DNA from: Nemertoderma westbladi
Taxonomy: Eukaryota; Animalia; Xenacoelomorpha
DNA: 48,485 nt
NCBI GenBank assembly: GCA_032718475.1
Contig: JAUCBJ010008966.1
Location: 1-48,485 of the forward strand
Direction of reading: 5' to 3'
Position 1 is the first letter of the stretch. Each line of letters starts with the position of its first letter. The notes under the pieces were generated by a model, which saw nothing but the letters and a program-made list of their open reading frames with translations, was not told the origin of the DNA and ran no database searches. The position numbers and the translations under genes are program-made. This document shows, one piece after another, positions 6,127 through 48,485 of this stretch.

Positions 6127-7837
6127 ATGCCATACCCAGTACGGCAACGAAAACCACCCCATTCTTATTCAGATGAGTGGATTCAGATGAAGACATAGAC
6201 GAAGATGGTAGTGAGGCTGACACAGCTGGCAGTATCGACGACAGTGTTAGTGGTACCGGTAGTAGCGATGATGACGATGACTGCTTTATGCTCCCTGAAT
6301 CCAATGTTTGGAAATCGATTGATCCAGACCAGGATCCATTTCAGCCTCACTGTTTCAATTCAACATCTGGCTGGCGGGGTGTGGATACAACAAATTTTGA
6401 AATTGGAAATTATGTTGATCTTTTCTTGACTGATAATTTAATTTACATAATTGTAAAGTGCACCAATCAAAGAATCCACCAAGCGAACAAAGCAGCATTG
6501 AATTTAGCTACTACGTCCGGGAAGAAAGTTATACCTGTCAAAGATATCGCAGCTTCTGAAATGCGACAATTTTTGGGAATTACATTTTTGATGGGTGTAA
6601 TAAGAAAATGTACTTTACATGATTACTGGCAGACTGGTCCACTAGGGAGAGTATCGCTACTCTGCATTTCGGGAAACTAATGTCACGAAATCGATATATT
6701 GAAATCCTTCGTTATCTAAGATTTTCGGACTTAGATAAATTGGACCCGGATATCAGAATGACGCGTCTGCAGGATTTCATTGACGAATTGCATCTAATTG
6801 TAAAAGTTTATACTGCTGGGGAGGAACTTTCGCTTGATGAATCATTACTGTTGCATAAGGGGCGGTTACTATTCAAACAGTACATAAAGACAAAAGCAGC
6901 GTGATTTGGAATAAAACTATTTATTCTCACTGATCACCTTGGATATATGTTATCTACTATTATATACTTTGGAGCACAATCTAAAATAAATAGAGGTGAG
7001 GATGGTGCTTCTCACCTTAGCAAATCTGAGCAGGTTGTTGTTTCGTTGTTGAAGGAAGCTGGCTACCTAGATAAAGGATACACGGTATCAATTGATAACT
7101 GGTACAATTCTGTTCGGCTTGCCATGTACCTCTACGAACGGAATACTGGAATTAGAGGAACTATACGATGTGACCGTGGTATTCCGCTGGATCTAAAGAA
7201 TAATGAGTTGACTCCAATAAACTCGGTATTTTCCCGTAATAATGATGGTAATGGTCCGGTACTTGCCATAAAATTCTGCGACAAAAGAGTCATTTACTTT
7301 ATTACAACCTCCGATAAAGCCGACCTTGTAGATAAGACCCGCTACCTATCCGCAGGACCAACTCAAGACTATAAGAAACCGCAACCTATTGATAAATACA
7401 ACTATAACATGGGTGGAATAGATTCTTCGGATTCAATGATTTCTTCGTGTACATCTGTCCGCAAATGTCAGAAATGGTTTGTCAAACTAGGAATCCATTA
7501 TATTCAGCGCCTTGTATTGAATAGTTATATCCGCTACCGGGCTGAAAAGAAACCGAAACATCTAACATTCAGTATGTACCTCTTGGATGCTATCGATTAC
7601 CTAACACAAGTACCAACACGAGCCGTCCCACACAAGCGTCAATCTTTGGCAGCCGTGCCAACCACTCACAAGTTGGTCAAACTGGAACCATCTGGAAAGG
7701 TACTGTCCCCGCAGAAGCGTTGCCGTGTGTGTTGGAAAAATCGTACTTACAAAAGATCGTGCTATATTTGCCCAGCTTGTCCTGATAAGCCTGGACTTTG
7801 TCCAACCTGCTTTGGAGAATATTCTCACTCAAATTGA
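6127..7837 (+). pseudogene. piggyBac-family (PGBD4-like) transposase, disrupted
   Basis: Acidic N-terminus, DYW...MSRNRY, all three catalytic aspartate motifs (LSLDES, IDNWYNS, MGGIDSSD) and a C-terminal Cys-rich domain CRVC...CPAC...LCPTCF. There are frameshifts near 6175 and ~6645 and an in-frame TGA at 6902-6904 (KAA*FGIKLF). Confidence 0.93.
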
Positions 7838-9184: not shown

Positions 9185-11309
9185 AATGTTAGTAGTTGTA
9201 GTAATAGACTAACACTAACTCTCATACATAATGCACATTAGATGTTTATGTATCTGCCTACTTTCCTTTCTACTGCCTACTTACCAGCTCTCCCGTCTCT
9301 CCCGATGCACACAGTGACACCCATGGCACTGACTCTTTGCTCTGCTCCAAATCCAACTGCTCCAATATCCACCGCTCCAATCCCAACTCCCCTCACCGTT
9401 CCAACCCTAATTTATCTCATTGCCTCGACCCCCATACTCTCCATCTCAATCCTCCACGCCGAGGTCTCTGTCTCAACCACCAGTCTCACCAACATCCCAA
9501 TGTCCTGCTGGTGCACCATATGCACTGGTCGCAGCAGCCGACCTCTATCCACATTCCACACCATATGTAGTGTCGGTTGTAGTAACCGACCTTTATCCAC
9601 ATTCCTCACCATATGTGGTTTCGGTTTGTTTTAACTGACCTTTATCCACCTCCTTGTAAGACGCCGAGCAGATTGGCTTCACTATCGGACCCGAATTTAC
9701 AAGAGTGGACCAGTTTGCTTCTCTGTGTGGCATCCATATGATGGACCATCCCCCGGTCGATGCTGTTTCACCATCCACTGGATGATACACATTCCCGAGA
9801 TCCCGGTTGTAGTCGCTGGTTGCAGAGCGATCAACTTCTCGGCCGAAACCAATGCACCGGGCCTCCAACTTGTCCCCCTCCGATATTTCCGTCATATTCA
9901 TAATTAACATACATCCATATGGTAAAAATGCATCTCCTCCCGCACTGTGCTGACCGGTCCACTTAACGTCCATCCAAATGGTGTTAATATCGCTACTGGA
10001 TCACCAGAATTTTCCTCCCCGAACACCATTTTCATCCTATTGTGAACAGTTGGACAGTCCATTCCAACTATTAATTATACTTTCAGTACATTGAGATATG
10101 ATATCCTGAAGTCTATTCCCTTAAGATCAATATATTGTTGTTCGTTTCTACACTAGTTGGTCTCCTGGCATTAATGTTGAGGGTTTCTATGATTCGTATA
10201 GGATCACAGGTTTGCGAGAACTCCCATCCTGGCATGACAGACTCTATTGTGCACTGTCCTATCCTCATCTGAACAACTTCATCCTTGTTAGTTATGGTTG
10301 TCACCACCACATCTCTCGGTCTCGTTACTAGTCCTATCTTGTTTGCTATTGAAAGTTCTGTGAGTGTGAACACAGCCCCGCCACCTATTAACATTAGCAT
10401 CATCACAGATTTATCATTCTCATCACTGATCCTCACGGGCACTACCCAGAGTAACACCATTATTATGTTCTCTTTCTTCTCACATCGCTGTCCCCATATT
10501 ATTAGTTTGTCCATCCCGACTGCCAGGTTCACCAAAGGTACATGCATATTCTCTATGTCCCCTTTTAACGCAGTTGTGACATAGTATCTGCTGATTTGTG
10601 TATACTTTTCTCTTGGCCGCGAGTATGCTTTTTCATTCATTACTGTTTGCTGTATCGTGGTTTTCTTCACTGTGTCTCTGGCATGTATATCGTCGGTCGT
10701 ATGGAACATTTAATCTTCCTTCCTTCAATTCCCTTTCTCAAGCTCATTGCTGAAAGTTTACACTATGGCTTCCTCCCTGGTCTTCCGGTCTACTTCCACT
10801 CCATGCTTGGTACCCTGTGTACCCCTCTGGTTCCTCTTCTGAAATGTTCTACCTCTGTCTATGGAAATGCCATGGAATAAGCTGCTGTCTCAAGGTTTAG
10901 CGGTGAGGCCCTTGCTTCTTGTGCCTCACTCGTGTCACCAACTTCAGGCCTACAGCCTACTGTTCTGATCCCTATTACTTGATCTATACTGTTTTCATGT
11001 TCAATACAATTTTTGCAAGTTACATTTCCTATTGGGGTGCTCGCGTACCATCGCCGGTCGTTGACGTCTGCACTGTTTATTCTAACAGCCAGTCGACTCG
11101 ACCTCTTTGCTTTCTTGCACGACTCCTCTATCCGCTACAACTTCTTTGGAATCCGTTCGATCAGCATTCCATCGATCGACTTAATCCCAAATCCTCCGAT
11201 CCTCTCCATGATCCTGCTCCCATCCATACACTGGGACTCTATAATCGGGTTGCCCCTCCGCTCCCACACACGATTACTCGTGTTCCCTTCCTCGAACCAT
11301 CCATTGACT
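9185..11309 (-). mobile_element. Old degenerate BEL/Pao element, 3' part (gag/protease remnants, large internal deletions)
   Basis: ORF 10113-10709(-) aligns with the protease region of the young element (VVPVR...LML.xxGA.FTL...NINARRPT). The 9960-10080 region reads IVGMDCP...DPVAILTPFGWTLSGP. The left boundary is uncertain. Confidence 0.8.
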
Positions 11310-11314
11310 CGTCT

Positions 11315-11860
11315 TGTTAGCTTATTCAATCCCGCTAACACCCCATAAAGTTAAGCCGATAAGCAATATTGGGAGCCACGAGATTGGGTAATTAACCAAC
11401 TCGTGCCACCCCAATAAGAATGGGAAGGAAACACACAATGAGGGTCAGGGGCCAAACCCCTAACCCAGAGAGAACAGGTGGAGTGAACGGGAACACTCCA
11501 AAGGGCGCCAACAAGGGTACCAACCAATCAGAGGGGGGAAAGGCATCGATTAGGTAGAGTAACAAGGCCAACCGTGCAATATAGCCACTTGGCAGTAATC
11601 ATATCATTTCAGTTATATCAGTGCAATATTGGTGCTAGTTTAGGTCAGATAGTTTAGCTAGGGAAGGACCGGGACTTTAGTTACCGTATCCCGCCTTCCG
11701 TATACAACAACCATATTATCTCATATCTATACCTATATCTATATCTGTATACCCAAATATTATATACGACGAACAGCACAAACTCATTTACTCTTTATAC
11801 ACGGCGGGGACGCGTGAACTAACACCGGATAAACCGGGATCCCTCTTGGATCCCATCACA
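11315..11860 (+). repeat. 5' LTR (546 bp)
   Basis: tgttagc...tcaca. By eye it differs from the 3' LTR by about 4 substitutions and 1 indel. Confidence 0.97.
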
Positions 11861-11932
11861 GTAACTAAATCAGAGCTGCCGCCCTAGCTAACTAAACTCA
11901 GCAACCACCAGCCACCAATCTGCAGAAGAGAG

Positions 11933-14900
11933 ATGAGTCGGTAAGGTGAGACGACACCGACGCGGACCCAGGACGAAGAGCTAACGATCCGCGAGGCCGC
12001 AACCAGGCGATACAGGCCCACGACGCCGGAGCCATTGGTAACGGGCGAACCGGAGATTCAAGATGAGGGGGGCCGTCTGGAGTCAGAAGTCGAGTCGAGA
12101 GGAGGGGGAGTCGAGTCGGAGGATAGAGAGAACGAGCTCGAGGGAGAAAGAGACCAGTCGACACGGAACGAGGGTCGGCGTGCCGATGTCGCGGGCCAGC
12201 CACAGGCCGAGAGCGACGAACGGCCCACCGAGACGGCGACGGCGGGGCCGACGGTACGACGCCGGACCCGGAGAGACGACGGAGATGTCGATACCGATAT
12301 CGCCGGCCAGGCACAGGCCGAGGGCGACGGACGGCCCACCGGAACGGCGACGGTGGGGCCGCCGGTACGACGTCGAACCCGGAGAGACAGACGAGAGGTC
12401 GGCGACGAGGACGTCGGGGTCTCCGATCGACTTCGACGGGCCTACAACGCGACCCGGAGACTACTAGAGGAGGCCAGAAAGGGGAAAACGATAGACGAGG
12501 TAAAACTAAAGTCAGGACTAGGTAAGTCGGACAGACATTTATACTATCTAATGCGTTTCGGGCAGAGAGAATTGGCCGAGGAGAGAGCGAGAAGGGTTGC
12601 CGAGGAACTGTATGACTCATGGCGGCATGGGGGTATACAACCTAGTGTAGTGTACATAGGGCCATATTTAATCGATGCCCGGGGTATAAAATTAGTGGGT
12701 TGGAACAGACCTGAGGAGGGCGAATCCGAGGTTAACCCCGAGGATTCGGCCTCGTCGGTCGGAGGAAGTTCCGGGAAGCGGGGGAAAGTTAGTAGATCGG
12801 GAAGGCGGAGGGAGTCCGTCGTAAAGTCTGCTACATCCTCCGCGAAAGAAAGACTGGTGAGAGAGGTAGGTGCCGCGTACCGTCTCGGCCTGATAGAGCA
12901 AGGTCAGAGGGAAATGGATAGACAGCTAGAGGAGGGGAGAATGCGGCTAGAGAGGGAAGCGGCATTGATTAGAGAAACCGGAGAGAAGGCCGAAAGGGCT
13001 TTGAGAAGCCTTAGGGAGTGTGAGGAAATAGAGGAAAAGGAGTGTAGGGAGCGTGAGGTGAGAGAGGAAAGGGAACGCAAGGAGCGTGAGGCGAGAGAGG
13101 AAAGGGAACACAAAGAGCGTGAGGCGGAACGCAAAGAGCGTGAGGCGGAACGCAAGGAGCATGAGGCGAGACGGGAAAGTGAACGCAAGGAGCGTGAAGC
13201 GAGGCGAAGGGAGAGCGCTAGGAGAGTAGCAGAGTTGGCTGAGCGGGACGCGCGGAGTGTGAGAGGAGAATGGTAGAAGCTGAGCGAGAGCAAAAGGAAT
13301 TAAAGAGACGCCAAAGTGAGCTTGCGGAACATAGGATTAGACGCGCGCACGAACTACAACTGGTGCGGGCGGGGGCGTCTGAGAGCGGGACTGGCTCGAG
13401 TATTTTAGGGGAGCCAGGGGCCGTGGATACATTTATTAATACCCCACTCACAGGGACCGCACGACAGACCCAAAACTGGTGTGACCGTACGGGCGGGGGG
13501 GGTAATAACAATAATGCTACAGTAGACGTTGTTAATATTAATAGTACCGTATGGGATAATTCTAATCAAACCTTTATTGCAGGAAATACTTTGCCTAGTG
13601 ATAGTAATTTAAATTTAAATCAGAACAATCCTAGTATTAATGTAGAAAATAATTCTAATATTAATGTAGCTACACAAAATAATCCAAATAATCAAAATAA
13701 TAACCCAAATTCGAACCTACAAAATAATTTAAGTAACGCAATTACACAAAATAATCCAAATAACTTAAATAATGATCCGAGCCCTAATTTACAAAATAAT
13801 TCAGATAGTGTAGTCGCGCAAAGTAATTCAAATGATTTTATTTCGAACGAACAAATTAATTCCGTTTCCAATATGGGTGCTATTAACGTAAACACATCGG
13901 GCGTGTATAGCCAGACAGACGGGGGCCTGGTAGGCCACACAGTTGGTGGGCCGGAAGTAGCTGGGTTAGGTAGACCCAGCGAGGGCCTGGTAGGCCACAC
14001 AGTTGGTAGGCAGGGAGTGGCTGGGTTAGGTAGACCCAGCGAGGGCCTGGGAGGCCACATAGTTGGTAGGCAGGGAGCAGAGGGCCTGGTAGGCCACGTA
14101 ATAACAGAGGGAGAGGCGGGGGTGAATAGACCCGACCGTGATAGGGTTGATGTGTCGACTAGAGGGGGATATAGTAGCGTAGTGAGAGATAGCGAAATTG
14201 GATGTGGCGAGTGGGGGGGGCTACAGGGGCCCCACAACAGCGAGTTAGCGGCGAAAGGGGGGGGGGGGCAGAGAGTGTCCCACAGCCGTCAGCGGATAAT
14301 GCGCGGGCCGAAATAGGTAAACCGCAACACCCGGCGACGGAAAGTAATAGGGGGATTGCGAGTATCCCCAGCGGCGTGCGACCGAGCAGAGAGAGACAGG
14401 TTGACGTCGTAAGAGGGCGGACAAAGCGTCGAGCCCGATCAGAAGAGGGAAGAAGAACAGTGGGGTTTAACCGGGAGGTCGACGAGAGATCTCACGAGCG
14501 GGAATACTCCACTGAAAGGAGAAGAAGGGAAGACAGTAGTAGAGGTATCGCCGCGAACGATAGAAGCGTGAGGACGGATAGCGAGCCGTCGGTAGTCGAG
14601 ATGAGAACGGAGAGTCAGTGGGGTCGGACTCCGGGAGATTGCCGTCGCCCCAGAGAGATGCGACCCGGCGAGGCGCACTACGCGCCGATGGAGGAGTACG
14701 CGATGTACCGGTACGAAGACGAGAACAGTAGAGGGGGGGGGTCGAAGAGAAACTTTCCGACGGAATACACCTATCGATCGAGAATACGGTAGCCGCGGGG
14801 AGGATTATTCGAGAAGAATAAACTTCGATCCCGAGCGACACATGCAGACTGTAGGACATACTGTAGGCCTTACTGCACATACCATAGGCCATACTGAGAG

Positions 14901-17900
14901 AGGCAATGTAGGCGATAGGATAGCGTGGACAACGGGATTAAACCCGGAAGTCGCGGAATACATACCGGTGGGTAGGCCAGAAGCTGATAGGCCTATACTG
15001 GTACCAGTACAGCAGTATGACTACAGCATGCAGGGACATAACATATACCCAGGGGAGGGGGGAATTATTGCGGATAGGTGTATGGGCCCCAACATATTAA
15101 CATCAACCCCAGTACCAAACATACCGGTGGGGGGGGGGGACAGGGTGACATTCCTCCATCACAATATCAACAATATACCCCGATAGGAGCAAGAACAACG
15201 AGACCCTTGGATGAGAATAGGTCGTGTGATACAGACATATGGAGGGGGCCGCTACCCCCGATGACATACCCAAGTCAGAGAAAGTCAAGAAATAGGACGG
15301 ACGAACCGCACCAGACAGGAGAAACTATACAGCACCCATCGAATCGATTGGAAGCACAGGCGATGGGGATGGCCACGTTGATCGATGCGTTGAAAACGAG
15401 GATCGAGTTACCACCCGTGGAACCATTCAAATTCGATGGGAGCAGGCCGGAAGAATATTTACAGTTTCGGCGCATGTATAGTAACGAAATACTAACAAAA
15501 AACTTGACGCAGGCGGAGTGCCTAAAGTATCTGCAAGTATACACGGGAGGCCCAGCATACGACATCGTGAGGCAATATCAAGGAATAGAGGGCGGCTTCA
15601 CGACAGCATGGCGGGCACTGGATAGGGAATATGGGCACCCGGCCAAGATCATCAGACAGACATTGAGAGGCATAACATCGGGTGGCCTACAGGATAATCC
15701 CGTTAGCATTAAGACATTTGCTAACAAAGTTGAAAAGGCGCTAATCGTGCTGAAGACGCTAGACGCGCCATACAAGCTCAACGCGTCCAACAACATCACC
15801 ACGATAGCGCAGGCACTACCGAGCTGGCTGCGCAACAAGTGGAGGAAAATCACCTTCTCCACTCGAGATAAGAAGGGTGCGGAACCGGGTTTAGAAGAAA
15901 TGTCAAACTTCTTAAACTACGAGGCTGAACTAATAACTGACCCAGTCTATAGCGAAGATAGCCTGGGAAAGGGACCGAAGACGGATTACCATAGACCGAA
16001 ACCAGAGCACAATACATCAAACGCATTACTGAGGCTCAGGCAATCATTGCCATATGCAGCGACGCAGGGGACTGCAAGTCCACAGCTAGCCGAAGATGAG
16101 ACCACACCATGGAACGGACAGGGGAACAATAACAACACGAATAAATATAACCCCAGTACGTCCAGTAGGCCGAATCCAAACAATAAGAATAGTAGGGACT
16201 TTGGTACAAACGCAACTGCGATACGCAATGCGCTGTATAAGGAGGGCTACGACCCAAAGAGCAAATGCCAGCTACACGCAAATGCGCTTCATCAAACCAT
16301 GAACTGCAGGTACTGGCAGGCGCTACCTAGGCAAGATCAGATAGATTACGCGTTGAGCAATAAAATCTGCTCGCGATGTGTAATGAGTGGACATAGAGCA
16401 AGGCAGTGCAAGGAGAAGCCGGTCAAGTTTGGTCAAAGGAGAGGCCAAACGATGGCGACGAGCACAGTAGGGGCGAAGAAGAGAGGAATGGTGCTACTTG
16501 GTGTAGTACCCGTGCGAGTGATTGGGGAAGGCAATCGATCAGTAACAACACTAATGCTGGTTGACAGTGGAGCTGCCTTCACACTAGTCGAGGAATGGGT
16601 GGCCGAAGAGATAGGATTGAGAACGAGGCCAAGCAGAATGGCGGTAACAACCATCTCTAGCAAAGATGAGATCCTGGAGATGAGAACAGGACGGTGCGCA
16701 ATTGCAGCAGTGGCACCAGGATGCGACTACGGGGCAACCATCGACCCCATCCAAGTGATAGAATCAATTAATATCAATGCCAGGCGGCCAACCAACATCG
16801 AGGTCGAGCAATACAAATTCCTGGACGACATTGACTTCTCAATCCCAGACGTGGACGTTAGGAAGGTGTCCATCATAGTAGGTATGGACTGCCCAATGGC
16901 CCACGAAAGAATGCAAACGGTCTTCGGCGAAGACAAGCAGAGTGACCCGGTGGCCATATTAACACCATTCGGGTGGACGCTTAGTGGTCCAATCAAGAGT
17001 AAGATACCATTTGGGATGTCGGAGACATCAGGATGCATGTTCGCGGGAACAATGCAGGAAATGGGTGACGAGGGAGCAGAGGAGCAGCTTAAAAGACTGC
17101 TCAGACAGGATTTCGAGGGACTGAAAGAAACCGGGGTCGGGACCTCGGTAGAAGACAAGCAGGCTTTACAAAGCGTGGAGGAATCGATGACATGCGATGA
17201 GGGGCGGTATAATATAGGAATGGTATGGAAACTACCGAAGATACCGCTGCCCGACAATAGGGGGATGGTACTCACGAGACTCCGCAAGCTGAAACAAACA
17301 CTAAAACGGAGCCCCGAGAAGAATGAGTACATCCACAGAACGATGAAGAAGTACGTCGAGAAAGGATGGGCCGTGGAGTTACCGGTCGACGAGCCGAACA
17401 CGGATAGGACATATTACCTGCCACTACACGTGGCTTTAGATCCAAAGAAAGGTAAACTACGGATGGTAGTCGACGCATCGGCAAAGACCGACGGAAAGTG
17501 CTTAAACGACTACCTGTTAGAAGGCCCAAACATATACAATTCGGGCATAGAGGTGTTACTTAGATTTAGAAATGGGAAACACGCCTTCACGTGTGACATA
17601 GAAGGCATGTTCAACAAATTCCGTGTAACGGAGGAAGATAGCGACAGTCAACGCTTCTTATGGTATAACGGCGAGGAAGAACCGCCGATAATACCAGCAT
17701 ATAAGATGGTAGTACAAAACATGGGGGCCAAGTCGTCTTCATTTACGACGACTATGGCAGTGAGAGACACAGTGAAAGGGAAGGAAGATAGATACAGCAG
17801 TAGGGCCGTCGATATGATTCGACGCGGCTTCTACGTAGACGACGGAATGGAGTCTGGGAATACGGTTAAGGAGATACTGGACACAGGGCACGAGGTTAGC

Positions 17901-19445
17901 GACACCCTAAAAGGATCCGGCTTTAACCTGACCAAATTCCAATCCAGTTCGGAAGAATTTATCAAGGCGATAGAGGACAAAAGACCAGAATCGACCATGG
18001 ATAATCCCACAACAGCCAAAGGGCAGGACATGGCGATTAAGAGAACAGAATCTCAACAGAAGGCATTGGGAATCGTGTGGGATAGAGAGACAAACTGAAG
18101 TATGAACTGACGAACTGAAGTATCAGCTGAGCCAAGAGGGCGCAGACATCCACACGAAGAGGGGCTATGTATCGTATATAGCAAGGATATACGATCCCCT
18201 AGGCCTAGCATCCCCATTATTAGTTACGGGAAAACAGATACTCAAGAGAGTATACAAATTGAAAGATGAGTGGGACGTAGAGGTACCAGAGGAAATCAAG
18301 AAACAATGGAGTAAGTGGACAGGAGACTTGGAGAAGATGGGAACATACAACATGCCACGAGTGTATTTCCCGGATGGGAACATGACGAGTCTGGACCTAC
18401 ACATGTTCTGCGATGCGTCGTTGGAGGCGTACGGAGCGGCACTCTATTTAGTACAACGAGAGGGGGCTCATAAGCCCAGACTAGCCTTTAGCAAAGCAAA
18501 GTCAACGCCGCCAGATTCAGCATCAGTTCCCAAGTTAGAATTGACAGCTGCGAGACTAGGAGTTAGAGCCACATCCTACCTAGTGGATACTATCCCCAAC
18601 ATAGTGGAAACACACTACTGGACGGATTCCATGGTAGTGCTTGGTTGGCTACATAACGAAAGGACGAGATACCCGATATTTGTCGCAAATAGAGTGGACG
18701 AAATAAGAGCGACCACAGAACTGGAAAGGTGGCACTACTGCCCAACAGACGAGAACCCAGCGGACTTGCTGTCGAGGGGCGTGGAACGCCACACTTTCTT
18801 GAAGAAGGAAGTATTGTGGCAGCATGGGCCATGATTTCTGAGCCATGAGACGACGACAAGTAAAGTGGGAGAGAAGGACGCCGTATGCACCACATACACT
18901 AGGATGCGTCGAGAGACTGGTGGGCAGTTCAAAGCGTCTAATGACGAAGCTGATGAACACCCACATGGTCACTGAAGACGTGTGAGGGTATCATTAATAG
19001 CAGACCGCTATATCCGGAGAATGATGACCCTGAGTCATTAGACGTGCTAACACCTAGCCATTTCCTGATGGAAAGGCCAGCGACCATCGATATGCGGGGT
19101 GTAGACCCAGATGATATACACTCCCGCCAAAGTTGGAAAGTCGCTAAAGCAATAAGCGCAGAGTATTGGAGGAGGTGGGTCGAGGAATACCTACCCACAC
19201 TCCATAAAAGAAGCAAGTGGAGGAAGCCAAATAGGGAGTTAAGAAAGGGAGATCTCGTAATCGTTACGGATGATACTATCATCAACAACCAATGGCGGTT
19301 GGCGAGAGTCGTGGGCACTTACTCCGATGAGGACGGAAGAGTCCGATCGGTAGAAATGCTGATAGGTGGTAAGATAGGTGCGAAGGACAGAAAAACCTAC
19401 AGGAGAGCTGTAGGGAAATGCTGTCTGCTAGAAGGAGCACCTTAG
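11933..19445 (+). pseudogene. BEL/Pao gag-pol polyprotein, disrupted
   Basis: The ATG at 11933 is followed by a premature TAA at 11942 in the frame of ORF 12035. ORFs 12035, 13270, 14202, 14842 and 15078 join through frameshifts. Motifs seen: Gag LPPVEPFKFDG, knuckle CSRCVMSGHRARQC, protease LVDSGA, RT FYVDDG, RNase H FCDAS...PKLELTAA...WTDS...NPADLLSRG, and integrase tail ERLV...NSRPL...LTPSHFL...WRRWVEEYLPTL. Confidence 0.95.
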
Positions 19446-19589: not shown

Positions 19590-20125
19590 TAGTTAAGAGG
19601 TATGTAGTACCGATAGTTAGTTAGTTAGTTAGGAGGTATGTAGTACCGCTAGTCAGTTAGGGAGTTAGTTAGAGGGTACGTAGTACCGCTAGTCGGTTAG
19701 AGAGTTAGTTAGAGGGTACGTAGTACCGCTAGTTAGTTAGAGAGTTAGAGGGTACGTAAGTACTGCTAGTTAGTTAGAGTTAGAGGGTACGTAGTACCGC
19801 TAGTTAGTTAGAGAGTTAGAGGGTACATAAGTACCGTTAGTTAGAGGAGAGTTAGAGGGTACGTAGTACCGTTAGTTAGAGAAGAGTTAGAGTTAGAGGG
19901 TACGTAGTACCGTTAGTTAGAGAAGAGTTAGAGGGTACGTAAGTACTGTTAGTTAGAGGAGAGTTAGAGGGTACGTAGTACCGTTAGTTAGAGAAGAGTT
20001 AGAGTTAGAGGGTACGTAGTACCGTTAGTTAGAGAAGAGTTAGAGGGTACGTAAGTACCGTTAGTTAGAGAGAAAGTAAGAGTTAGAGGGTACGAGTCCG
20101 TTAGTTAGAGAGAGCAAGAGGTAGA
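19590..20125 (+). repeat. Tandem array of ~14 units of 35-41 bp (GTAGTACCG...GTTAG...AGAGGGTAC) inside the LTR element
   Basis: Directly visible. The plus strand is strongly G/A/T-biased. Confidence 0.95.
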
Positions 20126-20691
20126 AGGGTATATAAGATATAGATATTAGTTAGCAGTTAGTAGCGAGAGGGGGGGCATATGAGTACAGTTGGATAGATC
20201 GTGTAGGCCACGCGACATATACTGCTGTACTGCACAGGCCCACAGAGTAGGCCAGAATGTGGATTAGGAGATAGAATAATCCATAGGCAGTAACAAGTAA
20301 TAGGAAACAGTAAGGTAGTAGGATTGAAATTAAATCAAAATAAAATTAGAATAAGAATAGGGCTAAGAAGGGGAACAAATTATGGTAACAGTAGTAAGAA
20401 TAGGCAATAACTCAGAAATTCAGAAAGAGATAGGCCATCGAACTGAACTTAAACCACCTAAACCCATCACTCATCACGTTTGCGCCTTGGCAAGGCACCA
20501 CCTATGGGTGAGCGATCGGGCAGAGTTCGAGATGGCAGGCAAACTTGTGAGAGAGGAGAGAAGCAGAGGAGAGGGAGGAGGAAGCTAGGGCGCAGAGCTA
20601 CGGCTTCGAGGAATAAGCAGCCCTAGACGAACTTCGTTGGGCTTCGTCAGAGAGTTCGGGGGAGTCTCTAGGGAAAGAACTGGGGTGGACG

Positions 20692-21906
20692 GTGGGATCA
20701 CCGAAACAGTCGACGTCGGGATTGCAAGCGATGCCCATACCAGCGGGCGCCGAGGGCGAACAACCGCAAAGGAAGTTAAGGGAGCTAGAGGGATGGAGAG
20801 CTACGGGCGAAAGCCAAGGCGGGAAGGGACATAGTGGGTCCACCAGGATGCCGGGGTTGGGACCACTGCGAGAGGAGGACGAGGACGACGACGAGTTCGG
20901 AGAGATGCCGCCCATCGAGAGGATAGGTCACTCGGACACGGACTGGGTTGGCGGGAGGGTGGTGACGGCCAGTGGGGCGAGAGCCTTCTGGGACAAACCC
21001 GGCAAGCGGACCTGGGTGCACGAGGAGCCGGCGATGGATTTCGCGGGGAGCACTATCAGGTTGGGCGAGCAACCGGGGACGGCACCACGGGTAGTATTCG
21101 GGGAGACGATGCCCGAGAGGGGCGGAGAGATCGACGTAGACAGAGACACCAACGTGGAGAAGTTCGCCTACCAGCGACTCCACAGACCGCGGAGATCGCT
21201 TGGGACGAAAGACGACGTGGGACGGGAGACATTGGTACTCGGCTGCGACTACTGTGGGAGACAGACCCACCAGGAAAGGAGCTGCTTGTACCGGTTCCAG
21301 AAGGGAACCTTTTGTCTCTACTGCCGAGAGCCGAGCCACAGGATGGGGGCGTGTCCACGGTTGCATAACCGATGTCCAAAGTGCCACTTTCGGGGACACT
21401 ACGGACGCCAGTGCGACTGGATGGACGACGAGGAGAATTTCAGAATATTCGAGGAGTGGGCCGACGTCGGGGCCATGACGCGCCAGCGCATGAAAGCCCA
21501 GGAGTTCAAGTGGGGTTTCTTCCTTATCAATCAGGAGGCCCACATGGAAATCATAAAACGGAGGTTACCGTTTACCTATCAAGAGGTAGCAACGGCGGCG
21601 TCATATGCCGGAGTGATGAATACACAAAGGTATTTGGACAGGTGGACGCCACAGAACCGAGGGGAGTTTAGGGATTTCTTGGCGGAGCACGTACCGCAAG
21701 CAATGAAGATGATCCTATGGGATGCCACCAGAGGGAGACAACCGGGCCACTCTGAGGGGCCACCGGCGAAGCGATATCGGGCACTAATAACACCAGCGCC
21801 CAAGGAGCCAACAACCGGAATCAGCAGGGAGGTGGCGGCGAAAGTCCGAAAGCAGAAAGCGGATCCCAGAGGAGCGGTGGTAACCAAGAAACGACCCAGG
21901 GAATAG
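20692..21906 (+). CDS. Extra retrotransposon ORF with three CX2CX4HX4C zinc knuckles (putative nucleic-acid-binding protein)
   Basis: 404-aa open frame containing CDYCGRQTHQERSC, CLYCREPSHRMGAC and CPKCHFRGHYGRQC, with a basic C-terminus (KKRPRE). The true start is uncertain; the first ATG is at ~20731. Confidence 0.8.
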   Translation: MGSPKQSTSGLQAMPIPAGAEGEQPQRKLRELEGWRATGESQGGKGHSGSTRMPGLGPLREEDEDDDEFGEMPPIERIGHSDTDWVGGRVVTASGARAFWDKPGKRTWVHEEPAMDFAGSTIRLGEQPGTAPRVVFGETMPERGGEIDVDRDTNVEKFAYQRLHRPRRSLGTKDDVGRETLVLGCDYCGRQTHQERSCLYRFQKGTFCLYCREPSHRMGACPRLHNRCPKCHFRGHYGRQCDWMDDEENFRIFEEWADVGAMTRQRMKAQEFKWGFFLINQEAHMEIIKRRLPFTYQEVATAASYAGVMNTQRYLDRWTPQNRGEFRDFLAEHVPQAMKMILWDATRGRQPGHSEGPPAKRYRALITPAPKEPTTGISREVAAKVRKQKADPRGAVVTKKRPRE

Positions 21907-22644
21907 GACGCCAGGGGGAACTATCCTCAGAGGAACAGATAGGTTCCCAGGGCCGGGGGAGAGAAACTGAGACTTGGACGTGGTACGCCTGGAAGGCGCC
22001 ACGTGAGATGTGCGAACTATGTACAAATTTAATTAATGTGAATAATCATATAAGTACAATTTGTATGTACGTACGTAGCAATCAGTAATCTACAAATATA
22101 TACGTTCGGAGTAAGTACTATAGTCATACAACCTTTCTCAATTAGCTACTGGGACTGGGGGGTAAACTGACTATGGCACTATGGACGAGACACCAGACAA
22201 TTTCACACTTCTTGAGTGCAACGGCACAAGAGGGGGGGGAGATTCGTCAGAAGGGATGAGGTAGTCAGAGTGGGGTTGAGGGACGGAGTAGTAGGTGCGA
22301 AGTGCGGAGAGAGTGCGGACGCAATTCTAGTGTGGGGGGGGGGGAGAATAAGAGGCTGAGTGAGGGACGAGGAGGTCCGAGTGTATGAGAGAGTTAGGGT
22401 GAGAGTGGAGAAGAGATAGGGCGGAAGTGTTGGGGAAACAAAAGTTGCGTGAGAGGTGAGCGCGATCGGCCCGACATGAGACGCCAGGCATATAGGGTAG
22501 CGTTATCATACCCATAGGGAGCGGCCTGGAAAGCCGGCTCCGAGAGAAAAGAATTCCACCCCACACCCGATACTAGATCGGGATCCAGCGGGATTGTAGC
22601 GCACTTTTTTGGTTGATGCTATCTTCTTACCGGGAAGATAGCAT

Positions 22645-22653
22645 GGGGGGGAG
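22645..22653 (+). other. Polypurine tract
   Basis: GGGGGGGAG directly abuts the 3' LTR. Confidence 0.9.
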
Positions 22654-23198
22654 TGTTAGCTTATTCAATCCCGCTAACACCCCATAAAGTTAAGCGATAA
22701 GCAATATTGGGAGCCACGAGATTGGGTAATTAACCAACTCGTGCCACCCCAATAAGAATGGGAAGGAAACACACAATGAGGGTCAGGGGCCACACCCCTA
22801 ACCCAGAGAGAACAGGTGGAGTGAACGGGAACACTCCAAAGGGCGCCAACAAGGGTACCAACCAATCAGAGGGGGGAAAGGCATCGATTAGGTAGAGTAA
22901 CAAGGCCAACCATGCAATATAGCCACTTGGCAGTAATCATATCATTTCAGTTATATCAGTGCAATATTGGTGCTAGTTTAGGTCAGATAGTTTAGCTAGG
23001 GAAGGACCGGGACTTTAGTTACCGTATCCCGCCTTCCGTATACAACAGCCATATTATCTCATATCTATACCTATATCTATATCTGTATACCCAAATATTA
23101 TATACGACGAACAGCACAAACTCATTTACTCTTTATACACGGCGGGGACGCGTGAACTAACACCGGATAAACCGGGATCCCTCTTGGATCCCGTCACA
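22654..23198 (+). repeat. 3' LTR (545 bp)
   Basis: Direct repeat of 11315-11860, followed by the TSD CGTCT. Confidence 0.97.
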
Positions 23199-23203
23199 CG
23201 TCT

Positions 23204-27094: not shown

Positions 27095-29560
27095 TGTATA
27101 GTATGTTATCCATATGTAATGTGCTTTTCAACACTCATACAATGCTTTGTGTTTTTCCCATTCAGTGCAGTTTATTGCTGTTAGTAGCTTTCAGCTATTA
27201 CATAGGCCTAGTGTACCGTGCAGAACTTGTATATTTAAGTTGCTATAAGGTGGTGGGTTCGACATGAAGTGTATTGTATCAGCTGATATTGCAATATTAA
27301 TAATTAAATATTCCTATTATTAACCAACCATGTCTGCGCTTTATATTTGGCCTTGTATATAGTACGCCGTGATTGCAGAACCCCCTATTAATGATTAAAG
27401 TCTTACACATATACAGTATGTACTGTAGCCCTATACTTACGTAATTTTTATTACGATTAGACTAGAGGATTATTCAAACATTAATAAACCTGTTAGGATA
27501 TTAGCCTGGATATTCCGATTTGTACATAATATAAAGAATCCAGAATCAATGACAAAAGGATCTTTGTCTGGTTCTGAACATAGTTATTCATTGAACTACC
27601 TTATTTCGATAGAACAACATCGCCATTATGTAAAAGAAATCAAGTCACTGAAGTCTAATTCGAATAATTTAAGTCAGAGCTCCTCCATTTGGCGCCTTCA
27701 TCCAGTAGTTATGAATAATATACTTATGATGAAGCCTCGTACCAATGAGCCTCCACTTCCTATACTTCCTTGTAGAAGTTACCTAACTAAACTTATTGTA
27801 TATGATATTCATAGTTGTATTATGCATCAAGGTGCTGAAGCAACCTTAGCTCAGGTTAGATGAAAATATTGGATACCTAACGGAAGGTCGTTGGTACGTC
27901 AGTTGATTTATAATTGCAAACCTTGTCTTCGTTACCGAGCTCAACCTTATGATACTTCAGACTCATATCTTCAGCCATTTAGAAGTCAACCAATAGTGCC
28001 ATTTACTAAATCTGAACTTGACTTTTTTGGACCCTTGAATTTAGAAAATAACACTAAGGTTCAGTGTTTATTGTTTACATGTGCAGCTACTGTACAAGAG
28101 CTGTACATCTTGAGTTGGTTGATGATGGTTCCGCAGCCAATACACATCTTACTATACGAAAATTCTTAGCCCGATGTATACCACCTTTGTATCCTGTTGA
28201 GTTATACTCAGATAATGCTCGAACATTCACCAAATTGTCAACTATGAGATTCCCAAGTCACCTTGTTACATGGAAATTCATACCAGCAAGATCCCCACAT
28301 TGGGGTGGGTGGTGGGAGCGCCTAGTTCGACTAGCCAAAACATGTTTGCGAATATCGTGTCATGGTCGTAAGTTTACGAGATCCCAGTTGGAAGCAGCTC
28401 TAGTAGAGTCTGCAGCGGTAATGAATTTGCGTCCTTAACTGCTTCTTCTGACGACCCAAATGATTCATCAGCTATAAGCCCTAGTGACTTTTTATATGGA
28501 TCTCCACCTACTGATAATGTTTTTGATTACTTTGCTGTTGATTCTAAAGTTATTCGTAACAAACTTCTACTTCGTGATCGATTTGCCAGAATATTCTGGA
28601 AACACTGGCATGAACGATACCTTGCGTCATTACGTACATGGAGAACTGTTGGTAATGATCCAAAGCGTGTGCCCTCGGTTGGAGATCTTGTATTAGTCAA
28701 GGAGAAGGCTCCCCGAGGCCAATGGCATTTAGCACGCATTATGCATTTATTCTTAAGTCGAGATAGTTCGCCACTTGCAGTTGAAATTAAACTACGTGGC
28801 CGTACAACAACGCGCTCATCTCATTTGTTGATCCCTCTCGAGAGTGACCCTGGATATACTGATAGAGTTGGGGGGTCAACCATGCCTAGCTCGACCAAGG
28901 ATAGTAATAAACAATCTAGTAGTCGTGGGGGCAAAGACACTTTACGAAAGAATGTCTCCACAACAACTGTAGTGACCCCACAACCAATACCTACACCTGT
29001 ATACACCACCTTAAAAGGTCGCGTTATTAGGAAACCTCAAAAACTGGGAATACCCTAAGATGGAAAACAAACTTTTTATAACAAGAAATTTTTTATCCTG
29101 AGATTGAAAGAAAACTTTATATCGCAATGAATTTTTTGCGACGTGGGGGGATGCATAGTACGTTATCCATTTATGTAATGTGCTTTACAACACTCTCATA
29201 CAATGCTTTGTGTTTTTCCTATTCAGTGCAGTTTATTGCTGTTGTAGCTTTCAGCTATTACATAGGCCTAGCGTATAATAATCTAGCTTATATAGCTTGT
29301 ATATTTAAGTTGCTATAAGGTGGTGGGTTTGACATGAAGTGTATTGTATCAGCTGATAATGCAATATTAATAATTAAATATTCCTATTATTAACCAACCA
29401 TGTCTGCGCTTTATATGTGGCTTTGTATATAGTAGGCCTTGATTGCAGAACCCTATTAATGATTAAAGTCTTACACATATACAGTATGTAGCCCTACTTA
29501 CGTAATTTTTATAATAAAACCTTAGTATATTAATTTGTGGTGGCAAACTTCTATAAAACA
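27095..29560 (+). mobile_element. Second BEL/Pao-family LTR element, internally deleted (LTR copies 27095-~27453 and 29152-~29560)
   Basis: Direct repeats of ~360 bp starting tg(t/c)atagta, with a PPT-like GGGGGGA before 29152. The 5' LTR is fused directly to the pre-integrase region. The TSD and right end were not resolved. Confidence 0.88.
27452..29058 (+). pseudogene. BEL/Pao integrase remnant
   Basis: H2C2 finger (IHSCIMHQG...CKPC), LDFFGP, RAVHLELV, SDNARTF, WKFIPARSPHWGGWWERLVR and VGDLVLVKE..PRGQW, with stops and frameshifts. Confidence 0.92.
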
Positions 29561-32500
29561 AAACATGAATTTGCCGTTTCCTAATATCTATTGAATCTGA
29601 TACATATTTGTGCCAATTTTATTTACATTTCTCTATAAATCAATGTTTGTGCTAATTAGTGTTTCTGCTTGTCCTTGTACCGGTAACTCTTAAATTTTGA
29701 CTTTTAATTTTGACTGGCTGGCTGATGTTGTATGCCACTTCAAGATCTTCCTTAGCTTTCTCAACCTTACAGAGGAGGGGGGGTGGGGTGGGGGCCTGGA
29801 CGCAATAAAAATTTAATTTAAATTTAAAATTTAAAAATTTAATTCTTTTTTATATTATTCTGGTATATTGAATCGGTGGAATGAATGGTCTTCATTCATT
29901 GACTGAAGTGCTTCAAAGCGGTTTTGAACTTCTACTGTGTATCTGTACTGTGTACTGTGTATCCTTTACTGCATTGTCAGTTCTGAGTTTCTCCCAGTCA
30001 TAGTTGATTCGCTTACTTGTCATGATGGGTTAGCTGGCTATCAAACTGAGTCTGATCTCTGCAGTCACGATTCTGTGGTCCGAACTAATTATGTACGAAT
30101 GGAGAATGTATTTAGGTAGAATTAATTAGTGTACTTTAAATAATTTATCTAACAACATAAGACAGGTTCGTTTAAAGTCAAACTTTTTGAATGGTTTTTA
30201 AAGACTCAAAAATACCATATTGACGCCCCTTTCAGTAGGCGCCTAAGGGCAAGTAACCCTCCTACCCTCTACAATTCTAACTGTTGTTGCCTATAAAACA
30301 ACGTAAAATTAATGCTACAATGATAAATATCATGTCCATTCACATAGTTTGTATAAACTTTATGCTGGAAACAATTAACAATTACAGTAAGAATTATTGA
30401 TTATGCCTCTGTCAGTACTACTGTAGATGCATGGGATGCTGATATTGCAGTTGAATATGAGTTTTATGCGACATACATTTCCTCCCTTAGGTTCCATAAC
30501 TATTAACACGTTAAGCGCGGGAGCAAAACCATGTGTGTGTTGGGCCGTTACTGCGTTATGTGCACCGGTGCGCATTGTATGGTACAAATTAATGGAAATG
30601 TTGTAGTATTAATGGTATAAATTCCTTGGTGTGCATTTAGCAAATCACACTTAGTGCGATTTGCGCACCGGTGCACATGCTGTTACTGGTCCTGAAGTGC
30701 GACATTCGCACCCGCGCTCATTTTTTGACTTCATTTTAATCATTGATGTTAATTGTTTCGCATTTCGCCATCATGGTTATGACTCAGCTTTAGGCAATAA
30801 TTCTACAATAAACTACATCTCAGTAGCTGCTCCCAATCTATAGTTATCCACTAATGCAGTATTGCACAATAGTCCAATTTATATATGAGATCACTTTGGG
30901 TTTTAGATAAGTTTTGGTTTTGGATCCGATTTTGATTTATTTCTCTCGAATTTGTAGATCAATGCAACTACTTACAACAATGTACGTACAAACCAATAAT
31001 CTTACTAATAGCCAACGACTACTAGACTAGTTATTTGAATTTTATTTACAGAGACAAACAGGATGGAATGATAATGCCGAGAAACTTCGTGGGAGAATTT
31101 GTTAAATTGCGTCGAGAAATTCAATTGTTGATTCTAGAAAAATAAACTTAACCGAGCCAAATCGCTACTGTCTCCCTATTCTTATAAGAATTCCTTACAC
31201 AAACAACTCGTATAGCCTACCTTTTATTTGTTTATAACGTAATGTTTTCATATTATTCAGCCTTATAAATTTAAATTAATTTTTTATATATGTATATTTT
31301 GTTTCGCAAGATGTTTTTATTCGCTCCAATGGATGTATTCCTTATTAATTGCAGTAATGGATTTCTCGTGCCTCTTGGTACGATAAGCTCCTAAAACGGA
31401 TTTGAATCTCAAAAGGTTCCAAGAAGTGCTATCTTTCCTCTTATTGTTTTGGTTCCCGGCCGTCATAAAAATATTTCCCACTAGAACACGGTCCTTCAAT
31501 GACTTGTTATTTACGGACATCCACAACCCTTCAAGATAGTGCAAAGACACAGCGATTTCTGTTCTACCCAAGATGAATATTGCTCCCTTCTGGCATATAA
31601 AAATAGTGTACTGTAACACCATATAAAATCCTCTGGGATGAGGAAAAAGAGAAACCGGGTGAGGGGTGCTTTGGGTCCGTTAGGATCCAAAAAGTATAGC
31701 CTCAAAAAATCAAAATAATCCAAATTATACAGAAAAATACAGTATTTTTAGTCGTTTCGTTCAACTAAAAATACTCTGAAAAAATACAACACAAAGTCGT
31801 GAAAAATAGTCTATGGGCAGTGAAAAAGTCTTAGAATAAAGGTTTTGGAAAATCGTAGAAAATCTCAGGTTATGAAAAAGTCTTAATAAACTTGTTGCAG
31901 CTTCACGTTATTGGAACTTGGCGATAGTGCAGAACACCAGGTTACCGTCTGAGTCCAAACAGGGGTGGGACCGATTGGACGCAAATGGTTAGCTGTTACT
32001 TTGCCCACAAAACTATACCGTCGAACCTGGCGAGTCTGGGATGAACTGTATAGCCAGCGGACAGACTGCACAAGCACCACCGTAACTGACAAGAGTTGAA
32101 GCCTATAGAAACACTGCTACTTTGCCCCCAAAACTAAATAGTCGGTACGGGGATGAACTAAGTAGCCATTGGACAGAGTGCGCAAGCACTCTGAGGCTAG
32201 TTAGCCAGAGATCTCAATCCTTGGCGGTAACGTCTTACCTTCCCAGCTACCACAAACCCGCTAAGGCTGGCCTGGGAAGAAATAAGTCCAATACCTTGGA
32301 GCAGAGCTCACTTTAAGGCTAGTCAGCTAAAACTCAATCATTGGCAGACAGGGTGACATTTCCCCAATACAATATCCGCAATATAGACAACCAAGAACAA
32401 AGAGGATTCGACGAAGAGAGTGGGGTGGGAGGTGGGACGAGCTAGAAGGGGGGAAGATGGGAGAGATGAGAAGGGTACAGGGGATGCGTTGAACTAAGTA

Positions 32501-32587
32501 GGGCACGGGCATGATGACGTGTTTGATGCAAGAGCAGGGTATGTTAATTAGGGTGGGTGCCGGGCACAAGTGGTGCTGGGCACAAGA

Positions 32588-32705
32588 AGTTAGTGGAGTT
32601 AGTTGAGTTAGTAAGAGTTAGTAGTAGAGTTAGTTGAGTTAGTAAGAGTTAGTTGAGAGTTAGTTGAGTTAGTAAGAGTTAGTAGAGAGTTAGTTGAGTT
32701 AGTTG
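32588..32705 (+). repeat. GAGTTAGT-type simple repeat, followed by a short 'gataagatgtaaaggtagatgtagagga' repeat at ~32760-32890
   Basis: Directly visible. Confidence 0.85.
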
Positions 32706-32893
32706 TTCACATAATTAACATACCCACTTTTACAGCACTCAGAGCGTCATGTGCAGGTGAGAAGATGTAAAGGGGATAAGATGTAAAGGTAGGTGTAGAG
32801 GAGATAAGATGTAAAGGTAGATGTAGAGGAGATAAGATGTAGATAGAGTAAAGGAAGTAGATGCAGAGATAGTTGCAAAGGAAGTAGATAGAG

Positions 32894-33030
32894 GCGGGAG
32901 ATTCCTAAAGAAACGGTCTACCTGTACTCAATTATTGGAATGTACAACTGAACTGAAATTGCACCAATCAGTTCAGTTGTACATTCCAATAATTGAGTAC
33001 AGGTAGACCGTTTCTTTAGGAATCTCCCGC
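32894..33030. repeat. Perfect 63-bp hairpin with an 11-nt loop
   Basis: 32894-32956 is the exact reverse complement of 32968-33030. Confidence 0.95.
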
Positions 33031-34352
33031 AATATTCATCTTGGGAAGAACAGAAATCGCTGTGTCTTTGCACCATCTTGAAGGGTTGTGGATGTCCGTA
33101 AATAACAAGTCATTGAAGGACCGTGTTCTAGTGGGAAATATTTTTATGACGGCCGGGAACCAAAACAATAAGGGGAAAGATAGCACTTCTTGGTACCTTT
33201 TGAGATTCAAAGCCGTTTTAGGAGCTTATCGTGCCAAGAGGCACGAGAAATCCATTACTGCAATTAATAAGGAATACTTCCATTGGAGCGAATAAAAACA
33301 TCTTGCGAAACAAAATATACATATATAAAAAATTAATTTAAATTTATAAGGCTGAATAATATGAAAACATTACGTTATCAACAAATAAAAGGTAGGCTAT
33401 ACGAGTTGTTTGTGTAAGGAATTCTTATAAGAATAGGGAGACAGTGCCAAGTTTCGACACCAATAAAGTAACAGATCTGGTCCCGGTAAATTATTAAAAC
33501 ATTCTCACATTCGACGTGTTCTACCCAGTGAATTCCAGTATTTTGCAATAAGTGAACTCCAAGTGTTAGGCCATCTGCACTCGTCGTTTTTTAAATAGCT
33601 TAGGGAGCCGATTTCGTGTTTAATGTTTTGGTTATTCCCGCGTGGCTTATAGATTCGAACAGTTAGCTTTCTGTTGAGCGATCAACAGAGAAAGGAGTGA
33701 GCGATTATTTGGAGCCGTATAGTAAATAATAGTAAAACATATTAGCGGACGGCCCGGTCAGCGCCACTTAGCGGTAAGAAGCAACTTTGTGTTTTTGCTG
33801 CTTGCGGACGCTGTATTGTTCAATAGTAAGAACCAGCTCCTGATCTCTCTTGTTTAACATACACTGACTTGTATCTAAATTCTGACTAGTAACCTAATTT
33901 TTTACATTTCAGCTTTGAAAAATATCGCAAAATTTTGTATTTGAAAAATCCCCCCAAATACAGAACATTGGCGGGAATGTTTGAAACTCTCATAACTTCA
34001 AATTCGATTTCCTCAAAACTTTGTTAATATTTATTTGGTCATAAGACTGCTAATTTTCAAAACTTATTCTTGACAACACGTTATTGGATTTAAAATCTGT
34101 GCTCAGTGTTCGATTCAGCATAAAAATGTGTATTAGAATGATAAAAAACAAATTTATTTTTTGTAACCGTAGGTCGGTTTCTTGATCAAACCTTACATAC
34201 AGTATTTTAACATTGTTTAATTTGATTCACTTTGATTAGATGCGTTAATTTTGAGTCTGCACCCCCCTTTCTGGCTCTGTCCCGTGAAATCCTGGCTACG
34301 GCACTGCTTTGGTCAAATACCATGATTATTCTTTCAAAGTTTTGTAAATCGA

Positions 34353-47817: not shown

Positions 47818-48485
47818 CTAGAAAGCCTGTGGCCCTTCGGGCCACAGCTTTCTAGTGCACGTGCAGATGATATATGAATATGTGTGGGAGATTTGAGAAC
47901 TGCATACGGAACAGACACCATCATTAAATAAAACACCACCCCCATAAGAGATAACTGTCAAGTTTCAACTTTAGGCAGATTGTAAATAACAAAATTTCCA
48001 GAAAATGATCACTTTCAGATCCACCCTCTACCTGCGGACTGGTGAAATGCAGACGACGCTGCAGTTTGGTAAAGATGGGGTTTATGGTGAAGTAAAATGC
48101 CTGCCTTTCAAGTTTCAGCTTAAACAGATTGTAAATAACAAAATTGGTGTAGATGTTCACATTCAGACATTTCACCCGCTAGCGGTAGACTGAAGAACTG
48201 TAGACGACTCTGGGACTCCGTAAAGATACAGAATATGCTGTAGTAGATTCCTGCCAAGTTCCAGCTCAAAGGGATTAAAAAAAGAACCAATTGGGATGAG
48301 GTGTTCACTAACAGACAATTCGCCCTCTAGCGGCAGATAGGGGAACTGTATACAACTCTGCGACTCAGTAAATGTAGAGCCTATGCTGTAGTAGATGCCT
48401 ACCAAGTTTCAGTCTAAACCGTTTGTAAATAACAAAGTTGGAGAAGATGTTAACTTTCAGACATTTCACCCTCTAGCGGTAGACC
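47818..48485 (-). mobile_element. Helitron H1, 3' part (runs off the window)
   Basis: Same 3' hairpin plus CTAG, with more diverged satellite units. Confidence 0.8.

Follow-up and report, generated by a model that had tools for sequence, protein, structure and literature searches.

Candidate self-priming of a BEL/Pao retrotransposon by a long segment of its own RNA

How does an LTR retrotransposon start reverse transcription when its primer-binding site (PBS) does not fit the 3' end of a tRNA? The question is raised by an 11.9 kb element in a contig of Nemertoderma westbladi (JAUCBJ010008966.1), whose predicted priming feature sits at its 5' end. The window, i.e. the whole stretch of DNA that was analysed, comprises 48,485 nucleotides. 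The element belongs to BEL/Pao (Belpaoviridae), a family whose 18-nt PBS is described as pairing with the 3' terminus of tRNA-Arg or tRNA-Gly, and whose replication is called poorly understood (PMC8742986). An earlier note on this DNA had proposed that the element is instead primed by its own transcript, much like Tf1.

The element is flanked by the target site duplication (TSD) CGTCT (11310-11314, right copy 23199-23203) and bounded by LTRs of the TG...CA type, 546 nt on the 5' side (11315-11860) and 545 nt on the 3' side (22654-23198), which are 99% identical and differ at 5 places; a G-rich polypurine tract (22644-22653) abuts the 3' LTR. Between them, on the forward strand, lie an extended stretch of upstream coding sequence that occupies several frames and has no Pfam match (11945-15186), an ORF for DUF1759 (gag), aspartyl protease (PR) and reverse transcriptase (RT) with a YVDD motif (15078-18098), a Peptidase_A17/RNase H (RH) region (18106-18834; Pfam, E 4.6e-42), a C-terminal integrase (IN) remnant with DUF5641 (18842-19445; Pfam), and an additional ORF of 429 aa (20617-21906), which has knuckle-like Cys/His motifs and matches nothing in Pfam. 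About 310 aa of the integrase, including its core, are missing, and with several stops besides the copy is broken. The region upstream of DUF1759 is unusually long (3 kb) and contains Glu/Arg-rich, Asn-rich and repeated segments; the 429-aa ORF lies inside the element, 3' of pol, and is preceded by a tandem-repeat tract (about 19590-20100).

The Pol domains are of the Pao type in the order PR-RT-RH-IN (with the integrase core deleted here), and the LTRs fall within the 0.2-1.2 kb of the family and are accompanied by a TSD and a polypurine tract. The PR-RT homologues listed are BEL/Pao polyproteins (24-36% identity) and the RNase H region is 34-42% identical to the BEL/Pao homologues listed. 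The element shares with canonical Belpaoviridae (Semotivirus) the gag-PR-RT-RH-IN layout, DUF1759, Peptidase_A17, DUF5641, TG...CA LTRs, the polypurine tract and a 5-bp TSD, whereas the Ty3/gypsy chromovirus RT that defines the Tf1/sushi group is not what its proteins contain. Unlike canonical members it has no 18-nt site that a tRNA-Arg or tRNA-Gly 3' end would fit (PMC8742986). Membership in BEL/Pao is kept despite the non-tRNA PBS because the assignment rests on protein domains; judged by its sequence, the priming statement in the ICTV profile of Belpaoviridae does not fit this element.

To the left of the element, weak RT-region matches on the minus strand (9949-10460) make it appear that the insertion went into a decayed retroelement with the reverse orientation, and further left (6177-7837) are fragments of a PiggyBac-like transposase (DDE_Tnp_1_7, zf-Tnp_2). 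An older BEL/Pao remnant (27095-29512), with LTRs 89% alike, has lost PBS, gag and RT, and its internal part starts within coding sequence that precedes the integrase. A stop-free frame of 617 aa on the minus strand (34353-36206) carries repeats of 14 aa at its termini, several motifs containing Tyr and a stretch predicted to be membrane-like, and it has no Pfam match. The stretches 31167-33445 and 42964-48481 contain a pair of inverted repeats of 417 nt (98%) that enclose an inner palindrome of 63 nt, together with arrays of a 146-nt unit that recurs in larger blocks.

Directly behind the 5' LTR, with no spacer, lies the PBS (11861-11871). It is not of the tRNA-3' type, as the earlier note had recognised: TGG is absent from the first 10 nt 3' of the LTR. 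No tRNA gene was found in the window, and there was no Rfam match across 11300-12000. The first nine bases, GTAACTAAA (11861-69), are the exact complement of 11676-84 inside the LTR, and this 9-bp core gains GA/TC pairs across the bulged C11675; this pairing, and every sequence that the earlier note quoted, was found where it had placed them. After dinucleotide shuffling, 10 of 4000 LTRs had a complement of at least 9 nt at offset 0 and 35 of 4000 had one at offsets 0-5; complements of this length were also present at 45 of 6644 positions of the window, which served as a natural control; with splice joints permitted, 9 of 110 mismatched LTR-leader pairs attain 9 nt. The 9-mer match is thus real, albeit by itself only modestly significant.

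The complement does not end with the core, and here the earlier note, right about the nine bases, was incomplete. Positions 11622-11684 form the 5' arm of a long imperfect duplex, with perfect blocks at 11676-84, 11654-63 and 11628-34, and the leader (11861-11924) forms its 3' arm. A perfect 10-bp helix (11654-63/11882-91) shares its register with the 9-bp core, from which a further helix of 7 bp (11628-34/11913-19) deviates by two bases. Against the complement of 11861-11924 the segment scores 93, compared with 45.2 ± 6.8 for shuffled sequences (0 of 1000 as high), and the alignment terminates exactly at the first base past the LTR. In natural controls, which are stricter than shuffles, 93 was reached by none of 336 other 546-nt windows and by 2 of 655 other 72-mers (2 of 991 in total). 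The distal part without the 9-nt core was matched by 0 of 300 shuffles, and the duplex energy is -43.5 kcal/mol compared with -26.1 ± 4.3 (0 of 500 shuffles).

Could such pairing be unrelated to priming, an RNA structure serving packaging, translation or dimerisation, or else the relic of an inverted duplication? The two equally high-scoring natural 72-mers would suit this explanation, as would the distal helices, which every long fold predicts as stable (11654-63 at P 0.9-0.98). We nevertheless consider it quite improbable, since the duplex ends exactly where a primer must, at the first base past the LTR, and since relatives (see below) share an end-anchored match. Some primer, moreover, the element needs, because the family is high-copy and the present copy is young (LTRs 99% alike).

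A predicted TATA-like box (11579-11585; TATAA in the loose ends of other copies) precedes an initiator-like TCAGTT (11609-11614) whose predicted start, A11611, lies 31 nt past T11580. The distance from TATA to start is usually about 30 nt, and from the two motifs and their spacing a start at about 11611 is therefore predicted. A second candidate initiator, TCAGTG, is found at 11618-23; comparison was made with the Inr consensus given in the accessible part of PMC3601003. From 11611 the segment through C11684 amounts to 74 nt, and this stretch (11611-11684), with a predicted 3' end at C11684 between AC and the next C, is the putative self-primer. By itself it does not fold into a cloverleaf.

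The earlier note had favoured a start at 11673-79 and a Tf1-like primer of 11 nt. In such a short version transcription would begin at 11673-11676 and the first 9-12 nt would be the primer, in keeping with the 9 nt of the perfect block, with an Inr-like TTAGTT at 11677 and with a fold from 11673 that is dominated by the primer/PBS helix (P 0.79, z -2.9). On the other hand, no TATA-like motif lies about 30 nt upstream, and a start at the Inr-like A11679 would leave 6 pairing bases (P 0.01). Neither the 50 further nucleotides of in-register complement nor the geometry of a relative described below (L040) would be explained. With the promoter motifs favouring about 11611, a duplex of about 63 nt and a predicted primer of about 74 nt, we regard both the late start and the short primer as unlikely.

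Two structures flank the core, a helix whose 5' arm (11685-11695) lies just 3' of the predicted cut and pairs with 11803-11812, and a 7-bp hairpin (GGGATCC/GGATCCC, 11836-11854) preceding the LTR end. Both had been predicted in the earlier note, and both form with P 0.94-0.99 in folds from 11560, 11611 and 11620, and with P 0.52-0.98 in the fold from 11673. The primer/PBS helix itself has a P of 0.01 in free folds from 11560, 11611 or 11620, because 11664-84 prefers 11813-30, and forcing it costs 4.1 kcal/mol. The competing partner (11813-11830) is unlikely to be the selected structure because indels among copies are denser there than anywhere else in the region, with 7 of the 12 listed (of 34 rows). 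A long primer would in any case need refolding.

Family copies were followed in Logan contigs, unphased, from five DNA runs of one organism. Up to 1854 contigs per run cover the LTR-leader stretch and many are only 80-95% alike, from which it follows that the family is high-copy and diverse. At 85% likeness, contig depth peaks on two pairing blocks, at about 11650-11700 and 11794-11860. Among the substitution sites listed, a single one falls in the 9-nt primer core and none in the 11-nt PBS, the 21 nt of the adjacent helix or the 14 nt of the hairpin stem, and there are 15 in the 44-nt spacer. The loop of the hairpin at 11836-54 occurs in several forms while its stem is kept, the bulge base 11675 is variable, and the leader changes listed at 11888, 11891, 11902 and 11906 preserve wobble pairs.

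G11680A, the variant in the core, accounts for 25%, 15% and 14% of the depth in samples X1, X2 and X3. As to the covariation that the earlier note had proposed to examine, a PBS form complementing G11680A occurs as one contig form in two samples (X2, X3), and the matching change is not among the substitutions listed, which come from unphased contigs where divergent leaders may be missing. We read this as a hint of compensation and at the same time as a gap in the evidence. The earlier note had also considered that other copies might carry a normal TGG PBS. Neither a TGG-type site nor an insertion behind 11860 is present among the indels (12 of 34 rows) and loose ends (23 of 114) that were listed, which makes a deletion an unlikely origin of the non-tRNA PBS. 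The contig joints listed, from contigs that are short, include no strand-changing joint of the kind expected from a read-through copy of the primer. Contigs of X2, X3 and X4 return from 11890/91 to 11857/59 (within 11857-11891), and in those from X2 and X3 another unit resembling LTR end and PBS lies in between; these tandem primer-site units are possibly an aberrant strand-transfer product.

Is the situation peculiar to this family? A metagenome scan provided 78 BEL/Pao loci with 26-34% identity in PR-RT. Thirteen with terminal repeats were examined, and L026, L044 and L089 were dropped because their LTR end was unclear or cut, leaving ten with fixed LTR ends. Nine of the ten lack TGG and have a PBS with an 11-15 nt self-complement. 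For eight this complement exists only across a GTAAG...YAG intron in the LTR, 72-164 nt long, the second exon supplying 6-7 nt of the match; L058 has an unspliced 11-nt complement, and L037, with TGG at its PBS and without any match to its own LTR, is of the tRNA type. At most nine relatives are independent, because L043 and L087 are kin, and the only 2 of 110 mismatched pairs that attain 11 nt both involve this pair. Relatives with predicted LTR introns are L018, L022, L027, L043, L046, L054, L075 and L087, and also L038 and L040, with complements of 11-16 nt. Between LTR and PBS the nine relatives have a spacer of 2-4 nt, compared with 0 nt in the window element. The predicted primer ends after AC in 10 of 12 elements including that of the window, AC making up 3-8% of these LTRs, a statistic that is partly circular because it is the match that sets where the primer ends.

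These comparisons bear on the possibility that the primer is a host RNA supplied in trans, for instance half of a tRNA or some other small RNA, and that pairing between LTR and leader controls how accessible the site is. Copia lineages with half-tRNA priming exist (accessible part of PMC6317226), L037 keeps its TGG site and falls in the same 27-row clade as the window element, and in the free fold PBS and primer segment are not brought together. However, in the absence of TGG no tRNA 3' end would fit, and the differing PBSs of nine relatives each match their own LTR, which a single host RNA cannot explain; such a primer is accordingly judged to have a low probability, too. With no TGG, nine of ten relatives pairing with their own LTR and AC ends in 10 of 12 elements, tRNA-independent self-priming, as advanced by the earlier note, is the best reading of the locus, and self-priming in some form appears likely.

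Might the primer of the window family also be spliced, as 8 of 10 relatives would have it, with AG 11679-80 as acceptor? Two GT-AG pairs (donors 11554 and 11644) do yield matches of 8-9 nt. But removal of an LTR intron, which creates the PBS complement in the eight relatives, does not do so in the window LTR: there is no GTRAG donor, only 5 of the 15 bases before the acceptor are pyrimidines compared with 10-14 in relatives, match length was never gained in 515 pairs, and the acceptor AG is lost in 14-25% of the LTR depth. Donor, acceptor and match length together led us to reject this candidate, which has hardly any probability left. An unspliced primer is thus retained for the window family.

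The RT cores of the relatives are at most 38-39% identical to that of the window element. In the RT tree the latter is a long branch (2.0) of unsure placement within a starred 27-row clade, which also includes coral, hydrozoan and Daphnia proteins, the spliced-primer loci L018 and L022, the tRNA-type L037, and L040; references for Dan, Flow, Sinbad, Suzu and Sailor are not part of this tree. L040 shares an RT subclade with the window element (SH-aLRT 89). Once a 131-nt intron is removed, its predicted primer end follows the TATA motif by 106 nt, as it does in the window element, and it has an 11-nt junction match together with a distal duplex in the leader, which 0 of 300 shuffles equalled; this is one case, with the LTR end deduced from a single-LTR contig. 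Among 12 elements the distal duplex is significant in these 2 only.

In 15 single-LTR contigs with a guessed LTR end, which were excluded from the count, 6 have a best spliced match of 10-16 nt against shuffled maxima of 9-11, and L038 (16 nt) is the sole outlier. For a 16-nt pattern of LTR end and PBS, IMG/VR yielded 15 matches that were treated as chance, similarity not continuing past 16-22 nt, and a 24-nt family pattern was found in 0 metagenome contigs. None of 29 pattern matches in viral contigs was confirmed as a BEL/Pao relative.

Since nine of ten distant relatives self-complement without TGG, self-priming is likely a wider BEL/Pao trait. The independent origin in this lineage that the earlier note suggested is too narrow a view of a trait that spans relatives with no more than 38-39% RT identity, mostly in spliced form. 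By its sequence the window family is likely an intronless variant with a long primer.

The reading that we somewhat favour is that this BEL/Pao element primes with its own RNA, by means of a long unspliced self-primer of about 74 nt folded onto the leader. What the sequences show is the anatomy of the element, its capacity to pair and the conservation of the pairing blocks among copies; the start, the formation of the duplex, the cut and the enzyme we infer. RNA polymerase II would initiate near 11611, and the 5'-most 74 or so nt (11611-11684) would pair with the leader (11861-11924), a step of about 4 kcal/mol refolding that is presumably assisted by Gag. The distal duplex would likely anchor the short AU-rich core, and helix and hairpin would place C11684 beside the end of the LTR. 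The 3'-OH of the primer would be provided by cleavage just 3' of C11684, for which the element's RNase H is the probable enzyme by analogy with Tf1, and synthesis of strong-stop DNA would then copy 11860 to 11685. In most relatives the same kind of primer would be assembled across the LTR intron, a step that the window family would achieve without splicing.

The segment falls within the predicted R and is hence present at both ends of the RNA, and DNA cannot distinguish the copies. The primer might accordingly come from the 3' R copy, or from a second RNA molecule. We find this very improbable, since a cut there would presumably destroy the R needed for strand transfer; the LTR contains no canonical AATAAA. 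Several observations count against the long 5' primer as well, namely the P of 0.01 in free folds, the core of 9 nt, the 0-nt spacer, a G11680A variant whose PBS counterpart is missing from the substitutions listed, and a distal duplex in 2 of 12 elements. The model leaves the 0-nt spacer and the absence of a canonical poly(A) signal unexplained, and likewise the imperfection of the distal duplex if plus-strand synthesis copies the primer.

How does this compare with known systems? As far as the accessible parts of the sources go, the primer of Tf1 consists of the first 11 bases, RNase H cutting between 11 and 12 (PMC7175516), Tj1 has been proposed to prime like Tf1 (PMC4600332), and self-priming has been predicted for Tcn1 chromoviruses and for the plant Copia TAR lineage (Houba, Osr-1), so that it is not confined to Tf1/sushi (PMC6317226). 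As in Tf1/Tf2 of S. pombe, Tj1 and the Tf1/sushi group, the PBS of our element complements its own predicted 5' RNA in place of a tRNA site, and an RNase H cut and a structured U5 region are predicted (accessible parts of PMC7175516 and PMC4600332). It differs from Tf1 in belonging to another superfamily, and in a predicted primer of about 74 nt with a 9-bp core and an imperfect duplex of about 63 nt, as against 11 nt; BEL/Pao relatives would, in addition, build their primer across an intron. With Copia TAR and Tcn1 it shares that self-priming is predicted from an LTR-PBS complement. Those elements, however, are Copia or Gypsy and from plants, and the self-priming criterion given in the accessible part of PMC6317226 is at least 10 perfect nt. 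At offset 0-5 the window copy has 9 perfect nt, which is under this criterion, 11 with one bulge (9 plus 2 over it), and about 63 with imperfect pairing.

No report of BEL/Pao self-priming was found in the literature searched, in which subscription papers and Repbase reports are sparsely covered. The word tRNA occurs 0 times in the main text of two BEL/Pao surveys (PMC3118150, PMC6238403), and the accessible parts of PMC6934838 and PMC3286476 have nothing on the subject.

In a broader and more tentative version, to which we give slightly less than an even chance, a large animal branch of BEL/Pao has swapped the host tRNA for a capped piece of its own transcript. This piece would be tRNA-sized (73-75 nt) and clamped to the leader over its full length in the window family and L040; most relatives would splice an LTR intron, and the window family would have turned intronless. 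Should the window element indeed be self-primed, BEL/Pao would be the third LTR superfamily with self-priming, after Gypsy, where it has been shown, and Copia, where it is predicted, and its design would differ in the long primer and, among the relatives, in the dependence of that primer on host splicing. Annotation tools that require a tRNA PBS would miss or misread such elements, and self-primed elements would presumably evade control by 3' tRNA fragments.
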